Made by a program: the position numbers and the translations under genes. The notes under the pieces were generated by a model. It ran no database searches, was not told where the DNA came from, and saw only the letters and a list, made by a program, of their open reading frames with translations. Shown here piece after piece: positions 13,646-13,840 of a stretch of 32,000 bases of DNA; the first letter of the stretch is position 1; the number at the start of each line of letters is the position of its first letter. The DNA comes from Streptosporangiaceae bacterium. GTDB lineage: Bacteria > Actinomycetota > Actinomycetes > Streptosporangiales > Streptosporangiaceae. Where the stretch lies: positions 3,139 through 35,138 of the forward strand of contig DATGGU010000179.1 in assembly GCA_035308365.1 (NCBI GenBank), read 5' to 3'.

Positions 13646-13840
13646 CGCACTCCTTCCCGGGATGCCTGATCCCCTCGGAGTGCGGGCGAGAAGGGAGACT
13701 CGCTGTGCCACCGCACCTTCGCCGCCGCCTGGCTGGCAAGCGGCCTCTGCGGGCCCGGTGACGGGGGCTAACCGGCGGGGCATGGGGCAGGCCGCTGGCC
13801 GCGGCCGCCGTTCCTCCCCGCACTCGGGAGGGTCTTCGCC
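13646..13840 (-). promoter_or_regulatory. candidate T-box riboswitch leader (translational) of type-2 aspS
   Basis: Minus-strand RNA elements:
- A1 5' strand GGUGCGG (13717-13711).
- 7-nt bulge UGGCACA (13710-13704).
- A2 hairpin GCGAG-UCUCCCUU-CUCGC (13703-13686).
- A1 3' strand CCGCACU (13685-13679).
- Competing helix CGCACUCC (13684-13677) pairing with GGAGUGCG (13653-13646). This helix covers the SD sequence and abuts the AUG.

Upstream blocks shared with the ileS T-box in this window are codon-hairpin-GAACGG (GAC at 13834-13832, GAACGG at 13813-13808) and CCCGUCAC (13765-13758). Confidence 0.55.

Follow-up and report, generated by a model that had tools for sequence, protein, structure and literature searches.

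The window analyzed here is a stretch of 32 000 nucleotides (nt) from a Streptosporangiaceae bacterium (assembly GCA_035308365.1, contig DATGGU010000179.1, positions 3139 to 35 138 of the forward strand), and all coordinates given below are those of the window unless another locus is named. On its minus strand lies aspS2, a gene for an archaeal-type aspartyl-tRNA synthetase (AspRS), which is preceded by a leader of ∼300 nt that extends from ∼13939 to the AUG at 13645-13643 and has a G+C content of 72% (Table 1). The aspS2 product is a class II synthetase that combines the Pfam domain tRNA-synt_2 (PF00152) with an OB fold (PF01336), carries the sequence QSPQFYKQ, matches the NCBIfam family of aspartate--tRNA(Asn) ligases (NF003483) with 523 bits compared with the cut-off of 353, and has the AspRS2 of Thermus thermophilus as the closest solved structure (1n9w, E = 2e-115). 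The archaeal-type AspRS with a QSPQ motif that had been proposed in an earlier reading of the bare sequence (hereinafter the original prediction) is thus indeed encoded here. Judging from sequence comparison, the aspS2 leader is a real, intact and conserved Asp-specific T-box riboswitch, in which a canonical decoding domain is joined to a platform that sequesters the Shine-Dalgarno (SD) sequence. The original prediction had recognized a T-box within 13646-13840; in the alignment with the Rfam model, the element reaches ∼13941, that is, ∼100 nt further.

Table 1. Coordinates of aspS2 and of the elements of its leader (window numbering; strands of helices are given in the 5' to 3' order of the minus strand)
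Feature	Position	Strand	Description
Putative -10 hexamer TATCCT	13946-13951	-	TANNNT match; predicted transcription start ∼13939-13937
Stem I, canonical long form	13822-13935	-	Covered by the RF00230 alignment; mid and distal helices covary
Extra hairpin GUUC-AUCC-GAAC	13884-13895	-	Insertion in Stem I, adjacent to the AG bay on its 5' side; window only
AG bay AGAGAG, distal helix CCGCC/GGCGG and distal loop GGGAGCUGUGAA	13854-13881	-	AG bay 13881-13876, distal loop 13870-13859; RF00230 alignment
Specifier codon GAC (Asp)	13832-13834	-	In loop GAA-GAC-C 13837-13831, opposite ACGAGUA 13923-13917
Stem II	13775-13821	-	GCGGGG 13821-13816 : CCCCGC 13780-13775; internal AGGAA/CAUG loop, distal extension
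Stem IIA/B pseudoknot	13753-13774	-	CGG 13774-13772 : CCG 13764-13762; loop GCCC 13768-13765 : GGGC 13756-13753
Stem III	13721-13744	-	GCCGC 13744-13740 : GCGGC 13725-13721
Discriminator/antisequestrator	13679-13717	-	A1 GGUGCGG 13717-13711 : CCGCACU 13685-13679, 7 bp including one G-U
T-box bulge UGGCACA	13704-13710	-	7 nt between A1 and A2; UGGC 13710-13707
Helix A2	13686-13703	-	GCGAG 13703-13699 : CUCGC 13690-13686, 8-nt loop
Sequestrator hairpin	13646-13684	-	CGCACUCC 13684-13677 : GGAGUGCG 13653-13646, 8 bp; SD GGAG 13653-13650
Conserved box GAGGGGAUCA (AAGGGR in orthologs)	13667-13676	-	Just 3' of A1
aspS2, archaeal-type AspRS	12326-13645	-	439 aa, QSPQ motif; monocistronic; annotated non-discriminating

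The proposed identity of the leader as a T-box is upheld by matches to covariance models and by conservation and covariation among orthologs, and it is these, rather than the folding of a single sequence, that provide the significance. At gathering thresholds, Rfam detects nothing in the whole window. When an E-value threshold is applied, the entire T-box model RF00230 (positions 1-219) can be aligned to 13941-13679, with a score of 27 bits (E = 3.8e-4 in 501 nt; E = 0.024 for the same match in a search of the whole window). Full-length matches to RF00230 were also obtained in 13 of the 14 scanned orthologous loci with a complete leader, with scores of 30-80 bits and E-values down to 1.2e-15; in L020 (loci are cited by such numbers where needed), the match is partial only (model positions 7-103, 31.7 bits). 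With the AspRS protein, 80 orthologous loci were recovered (67-84% identity), each from a different GTDB species, the hosts including Nonomuraea, many Streptosporangiaceae metagenome-assembled genomes (MAGs), an Actinospica MAG, a Pseudonocardiaceae MAG and an Amycolatopsis strain. All 80 orthologous genes are preceded by GGUGG(C/U)AC, and in 78 of the 80 loci, the leader is complete. Among the complete genomes in which the leader occurs are those of Nonomuraea sp. CA-141351 (NZ_CP191982) and N. fastidiosa (NZ_CP170570). Altogether, 79 leaders were aligned with MAFFT, which is blind to structure, and the proposed pairs were counted on this alignment, in which AAGAC and the T-box core are invariant: 92.4% of the cells are paired, compared with 42-53% when the 3' partners are slid, and 29 pairs change on both sides, compared with 13.2 ± 1.6 in shuffles (none of the 500 shuffles reaches 29). 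At the level of sequence, covariation supports Stem I, Stem II, the Stem IIA/B pseudoknot, Stem III and the helices A1 and A2.

A family covariance model built from the aspS leaders and the serS leaders described below (R1) scores the window leader at 140 bits, with the window included in the training set; in 100 metagenome loci, R1 yields 96 matches, at most one per locus, and no additional T-boxes in the flanks. Folding of the single sequence, in contrast, is not significant (whole leader, z = -0.59; 3' domain, z = -1.29), and because z-scores are this weak in a sequence with such a G+C content, the argument that the leader folds without forcing is no evidence for the structure. These z-scores, along with decayed copies of the system in other loci (L024, L038, L092, L095, L117 and L179), are what could be cited in favor of a chance fold or a decaying, functionless relic in this genome, an account to which hardly any probability can be assigned: all elements are intact in the window, as also reflected in the R1 score, and the leader is conserved, with compensatory changes, in 78 species and ∼100 metagenome contigs.

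The decoding domain has the canonical layout. Stem I opens with a kink-turn (K-turn), in which GC (13935-13934), the bulge GCU and GA (13930-13929) are opposed by CGA-GU (13826-13822), and continues through the helix GGAG (13927-13924) : CUCC (13830-13827) into the specifier loop, the mid helices, the AG bay and the distal loop. The K-turn GA motif, the AGUA/GAA S-turn of the specifier loop, the AG bay and the distal loop were read directly as well as aligned by cmscan, and are conserved in the 79 leaders; in the mid helix, six of the six pairs change on both sides, as do four of the five in the distal helix, which is 99% paired. The specifier codon is found in the canonical place, as bases 2-4 of the specifier loop counted from its 3' end; by analogy with known T-box structures, the AG bay and the distal loop would be contacted by the tRNA elbow. 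Immediately 5' of the AG bay, Stem I accommodates lineage-specific insertions that range from 12 to ∼45 nt; insertions larger than the hairpin of the window are found at this site in L019, L023, L026, L033-L037, L044, L045, L050, L051, L059 and L063. Stem II is paired in 99.2% of the cells, with two pairs changing on both sides, and its distal extension is optional, being missing from the Nonomuraea-type leaders. The IIA/B pseudoknot includes the CCCGUCA block, aligns with the CCGUUA region of RF00230 and contains a IIB pair that is G-C in 53 leaders and A-U in 25. Stem III varies in length, with 94.9% of the cells paired and three of the five pairs changing on both sides; in L030, it holds an insertion of ∼100 nt.

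The transcript should begin at the foot of Stem I because a TANNNT hexamer is located at a conserved distance, 6-8 nt 5' of the leader-opening AAC, in 79 of the 79 leaders, compared with 1.2% of background 24-nt windows. TANNNT is the actinobacterial -10 consensus; a scan of the leader region with the consensus sigma-70 promoter gave no match. The start predicted from the hexamer of the window does not lie 3' of 13717, the first base of A1, and is compatible with a T-box transcribed in full.

The limits set in the original prediction correspond to a different architecture, namely a reduced T-box that does not extend beyond 13646-13840 and combines an ultrashort Stem I with a CCUCCC:GGGAGG hairpin 3' of the codon, similar to the T-boxes of actinobacterial ileS genes. 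This pairing is possible on paper, and the ileS leader of the same window (31185-31416, plus strand) is of the reduced type, with AUC at 31192-31194, GGUGGUAC at 31329-31336 and the ATG at 31414-31416; its AUC codon and its UGGU (31331-31334) are as originally described. For the aspS2 leader, however, the reduced form is very improbable: in the RF00230 alignment, the 5' half of Stem I is made up of 13941-13841, a segment that is conserved and covaries, compensatory variants at two pairs (A-U for G-C) favor the pairing of Stem II, the -10 box is located upstream of 13941, and with the aspS family model R1, the score of the ileS leader is within noise (9.3 bits, E = 0.48). The succession of a short hairpin, the codon and the 6-bp CCUCCC:GGGAGG hairpin therefore dissolves, its bases belonging to the 3' strand of Stem I (CUCC:GGAG) and to Stem II, as backed by the 79 leaders; it was an artifact of a reading that began at 13840. 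Similarly, the blocks thought to be shared with the ileS leader (CCCGUCAC, GAACGG and GGUGGNAC..GCG) are generic T-box motifs. RF00230 does not match the ileS leader of the window even at E ≤ 10, and a MAFFT alignment of the aspS and ileS leaders is uninformative. By these comparisons, the aspS leader is neither a member of the reduced ileS class (TBDB class II) nor a close relative of the ileS leader. An open reading frame (ORF) at 18535-21774 that had been considered as ileS encodes a DUF885 protein.

The comparative data also support specificity for Asp, which had been proposed from the codon, the discriminator and the enzyme. GAC is invariant in the 79 aligned leaders, as expected from the original prediction, and UGGC is found in the bulge of 77 of these and in 98 of 109 metagenome leaders; UGGC fits G73, which bacterial tRNA-Asp carries, as does tRNA-Ser. 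A scan of metagenomes by scaffold pattern, with the codon left open, returned 119 matches, of which 111 have GAC, mostly upstream of AspRS2 orthologs, five have UCC in the codon position along with UGGC, and three are chance matches without a T-box. The UCC matches are sister T-boxes on metagenome contigs (L093:2430-2742(+), L097:5480-5820(+), L113, L144 and L176) that share the K-turn, a GAA-UCC-A specifier, Stem II (GCGGGGAGGAAAUGCCCCGC), the IIA/B pseudoknot and UGGC. In L093, L097, L113 and L176, the UCC T-box lies ∼90 nt 5' of an MLDVTLIR-type start, and the downstream ORFs of L093 and L097, the two that were tested, are serS by TIGR00414 (∼360 bits). For L144, the candidate serS start (ATGCTGGACATCACC, MLDIT...; ATGCTGGAC...) is located closer to the T-box; the leaders of L113 and L176 have a shortened Stem I that lacks the AG bay and the distal loop. 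A relay model proposed by eye for the serS leaders was not reproduced by constrained folding. Because GAC precedes aspS and UCC precedes serS on one and the same scaffold, the codon register is fixed. Besides the orthologs of aspS2, the GAC scaffold precedes a second, deeply diverged clade of archaeal-type AspRS (L083:584-1894(+), L101:649-1938(-), L145:3689-5011(-), L094, L110, L118 and L134), with 33-39% identity to the enzyme of the window and NF003483 scores of 455-477 bits. The bulge reads UGGU in five of these seven leaders and UGGC in L094 and L145, and the SD is contained in a local hairpin, GUCCU...GGAGGAC.

In the output stage, helix A1 is 100% paired, with three pairs changing on both sides, and one pair of A2 is C-G in 53 leaders and G-C in 26. 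The sequestrator abuts the AUG, encloses an inner hairpin (GGGAU 13673-13669 : AUCCC 13663-13659) and is the fold of minimum free energy for the 3' domain, both in the window and in the majority of orthologs. By direct reading, A1, the bulge, A2 with its 8-nt loop, the 8-bp SD-burying helix and the GAC codon all lie exactly where the original prediction had put them. The 3' strand of A1 doubles as the SD-pairing strand, so that the alternative helices are mutually exclusive, and this pairing potential is conserved: in an alignment-free test, the duplex formed by the A1 3' strand with the 23-nt segment that ends at the start codon has a mean energy of -12.7 kcal/mol, compared with -7.6 kcal/mol for shuffles (mean z = -2.3; 71% of the leaders below -1.64), and the metagenome replicate gave -12.3 compared with -7.7 kcal/mol. 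Natural compensations are observed as well, with CGCGCUCC facing GGAGCAUG in L002 and L004, and ACACCUCC facing GGAGGUGU in L067. No terminator-like site was found in 13550-14100, the sequestrator hairpin being followed by AUGAUCUCU. These observations support the presence of an SD-sequestering platform without a terminator, and control would be exerted at the level of translation.

The same T-box could, alternatively, control transcription, with the G+C-rich hairpin 13684-13646 acting as a terminator or pause site that lacks a U-tract and the burial of the SD being a by-product. The hairpin is stable and contributes the larger part of the energy of the 3' domain (-35.7 kcal/mol), high-G+C actinomycetes often do without U-rich tails, and U-tract-less hairpins have been proposed for some actinobacterial terminators. 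Nevertheless, transcriptional control appears improbable because, apart from the lack of a detectable terminator-like site, the helix stops exactly at the AUG and includes the SD in the window and in most orthologs, and the only actinobacterial T-boxes that have been studied, those of ileS, are translational.

The explanation that probably holds for the locus as a whole, and in which we have considerable confidence, is a T-box that reads tRNA-Asp and releases the SD upon binding of the uncharged tRNA. The aspS2 mRNA would start at ∼13939, just 3' of the TANNNT -10 box, and would carry the complete T-box. The long Stem I would offer the GAC codon to the GUC anticodon, with the AG bay and the distal loop meeting the tRNA elbow, and the free 3' end of uncharged tRNA-Asp (G73-C-C-A) would base-pair to the UGGC bulge, the charge of the tRNA being sensed in this way. 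When uncharged tRNA is lacking, the 3' strand of A1 and the CUCC flank would pair with the SD region up to the AUG, blocking initiation; when uncharged tRNA-Asp is bound, A1/A2 would be stabilized and the anti-SD strand withdrawn, so that aspS2 would be translated.

Several observations weigh against this explanation. All RF00230 scores (27 bits here and at most 80 bits in the orthologs) are under the gathering score of 93, so that the RF00230 search suggested in the original prediction yielded a full-length match by E-value but not by gathering score. The base that follows the codon is C in the window leader, not the usual purine (A in 46 leaders, C in 25, U in one and G in one). The proposed match of the bulge to the discriminator base holds for the predominant UGGC but is not universal, given that UGGU replaces UGGC in two of the 79 genome leaders and 11 of the 109 metagenome leaders, with Actinospica and Amycolatopsis sp. 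NPDC089917 among the genomes that have UGGU; no tRNA-Asp gene that would allow a check of G73 was found in the window or the fetched loci, where the tRNA search detected tRNA-Pro(GGG) upstream in a subset of loci and otherwise gave false calls inside coding sequences. Of the helices for which covariation had been anticipated, A1 and A2 show it, but column by column, the MAFFT alignment gives no significant covariation for the sequestrator, owing to the near invariance of its 5' strand and to the misalignment of the SD region. Folding with ViennaRNA, with 12 nt of the coding sequence included, keeps the SD mostly paired even when A1/A2 is enforced (probability of being unpaired 0.13 in the free and 0.27 in the enforced state; 56 of the 79 leaders remain below 0.3). 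Finally, in the Nonomuraea-type leaders, the A1 3' strand pairs with the SD weakly (-8.9 kcal/mol), and a local hairpin over the SD and the AUG dominates.

That the SD stays hidden in the modeled ON state is one of the arguments for a more elaborate switch, in which the AAGGGR box (13676-13667) serves as a relay, and access to the AUG is governed by its multi-state or kinetic pairing with AUCCC, CCCUU or the start region. In the window, the box is complementary to the A2 loop CCCUU (13695-13691), to AUCCC (13663-13659) and to the start region UGAUCUCU (13644-13637). The duplex of the box with the start region has an energy of -10.3 kcal/mol, compared with -6.8 kcal/mol for shuffles, and the partner shifts between clades, being UGAUCUCU in the coding sequence in some and GUGCCUC 5' of the AUG in the clade of L013, L015, L017, L021 and L029-L031; the A2 loop (13691-13695) and AAGGG (13671-13675) are paired in 99% of the cells. 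However, both of these segments are nearly invariant, so that there is little true covariation, with one compensatory sequence only, the equilibrium folds differ by only 1-2 kcal/mol, and as long as A1 is formed, steric constraints appear to preclude a pseudoknot of the A2 loop with the box. Such a relay seems rather unlikely, and the release of the SD by uncharged tRNA-Asp is retained as the main explanation, although the modeling suggests that the output stage may involve more than two states or be under kinetic control.

The genomic neighborhood bears on the role of the enzyme. Within the segment 11162-19902, ppgK (+), a ROK gene that is divergent from aspS2, the T-box with aspS2 (-) and a gene for an MDMPI-domain protein (+), the convergent gene 3' of aspS2, lie between hisF (14767-15732) and hisI (11162-11536). 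The aspS2 block is an insertion in a conserved actinobacterial backbone that consists of the his/trp operon, lgt, dnaE and ileS; in Nonomuraea, the upstream neighbors of aspS2 are different. Some relatives possess only remnants of the system. On the minus strands of L092 and L179, a GAC T-box is broken within A2, after CGCGAGUUU, by foreign sequence with small ORFs, and no aspS follows the interrupted leader within the contig; in L179, GAGTTTCGCACTTT recurs ∼690 nt downstream, which resembles a target duplication. In L095, aspS lacks the first ∼34 codons and the SD and is frameshifted, in L117, the 3' half of the leader is replaced, in L038 (1400-1500), only Stem III and the discriminator are left, beside a divergent gene, and in L024, an orthologous aspS has no T-box. 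The insertion in a conserved backbone and the decayed copies in relatives suggest that aspS2 is a dispensable, accessory AspRS, and possibly a second one in the genome. Among the other loci, three peculiarities were noted. Downstream of aspS in L013, a Guanidine-II (mini-ykkC) riboswitch scores above the gathering threshold (3656-3711, plus strand; 40.7 compared with 32 bits); in L020, the T-box (1190-1500) lies ∼320 nt 5' of the conserved AspRS core, possibly because of an N-terminal extension or an inserted ORF; and in L054, a 15-nt tandem duplication (GATCTCACGAGTACT twice) is found at the start of aspS (1490-1530).

The aspS leader combines features of T-boxes that are otherwise known from different systems. 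With the translational T-boxes of actinobacterial ileS genes, including those of M. tuberculosis and M. smegmatis (Seliverstov 2005; Sherwood, Grundy and Henkin 2015), it shares the phylum, the lack of a terminator, the use of the 3' strand of the antisequestrator as anti-SD, Stem II and the IIA/B pseudoknot. The parallel to ileS drawn in the original prediction is thus valid for the mutually exclusive, SD-sequestering helices but not for the overall construction: in the ileS leaders, Stem I is reduced or ultrashort and is combined with AUC and UGGU, whereas the aspS leader has a full Stem I with GAC and UGGC. The class I T-boxes of Asp genes in Firmicutes (aspS, hisS-aspS; RF00230), for which TBDB lists Asp with GAC as the preferred codon, have the same decoding layout, the GAC specifier and a T-box sequence of the AGGGUGGNACCGCG type. 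Unlike the aspS leader, these are transcriptional, with a terminator, an antiterminator and a U-tract in place of the SD sequestrator; furthermore, the aspS leader differs from them in its high G+C content, in scoring under the Rfam gathering threshold and in controlling an archaeal-type AspRS2. The closest solved relatives of this enzyme, the AspRS2 of Thermus thermophilus and Deinococcus (1n9w, 3kfu), are of the archaeal type and belong to the non-discriminating family of NCBIfam; the aspS2 leader reads an Asp codon rather than AAC. To our knowledge, no T-box has been identified for the AspRS2 genes of Thermus or Deinococcus.

A possible analogy is provided by back-up synthetases under T-box control (thrZ and tyrZ of B. 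subtilis, ileS2 of Bacillus), extra copies that are induced upon undercharging of the cognate tRNA, as may result from inhibition of the main enzyme or from a shortage of the amino acid; for aspS2, indirect support for this analogy comes from the insertion of the gene and from the decayed copies. In published accounts, actinobacterial T-boxes are described as ileS-specific translational elements (Wels 2008, PMC2494555; TBDB, PMC7778990; review, PMC7583486), in agreement with the statement of the original prediction that essentially only ileS is known in this respect, with one exception, the T-box-type attenuation of the his operon of Corynebacterium (PMC9413887). Literature searches found no aspS or serS T-box in Actinobacteria, although individual rows may exist in Rfam-full or TBDB, and an Asp T-box on aspS in actinomycetes is, apparently, undescribed. 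With scores of 27-80 bits, compared with the gathering score of 93, these leaders would not be reported by annotation at the Rfam gathering threshold.

Viewed more broadly, the leaders might represent an unrecognized lineage of T-boxes in Streptosporangiales and some Pseudonocardiaceae and Catenulisporales, in which decoding of the Firmicutes type is coupled to an SD platform, with GAC leading to two diverged AspRS2 clades and UCC to SerRS, and the genes under their control would encode back-up synthetases that are dispensable and inducible and may confer resistance to antibiotics or stress; we consider this tentative generalization to have slightly less than an even chance of being correct. 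If it holds, the T-box regulon of the phylum would be wider than ileS and would have been masked by the standard Rfam thresholds, and the accepted picture, which includes only the reduced, translational T-boxes of ileS, would gain an apparently translational aspS T-box with a canonical Stem I, along with its serS sister. As a natural hybrid of a full decoding domain and an SD platform, the element would be useful for understanding how the contacts of Stem I with the tRNA elbow and those of Stem II cooperate in translational T-boxes. For the organism, the leader would mark AspRS2 as an enzyme that is induced by uncharged tRNA-Asp, so that the choice between a back-up or stress-related role and a housekeeping role would become testable.

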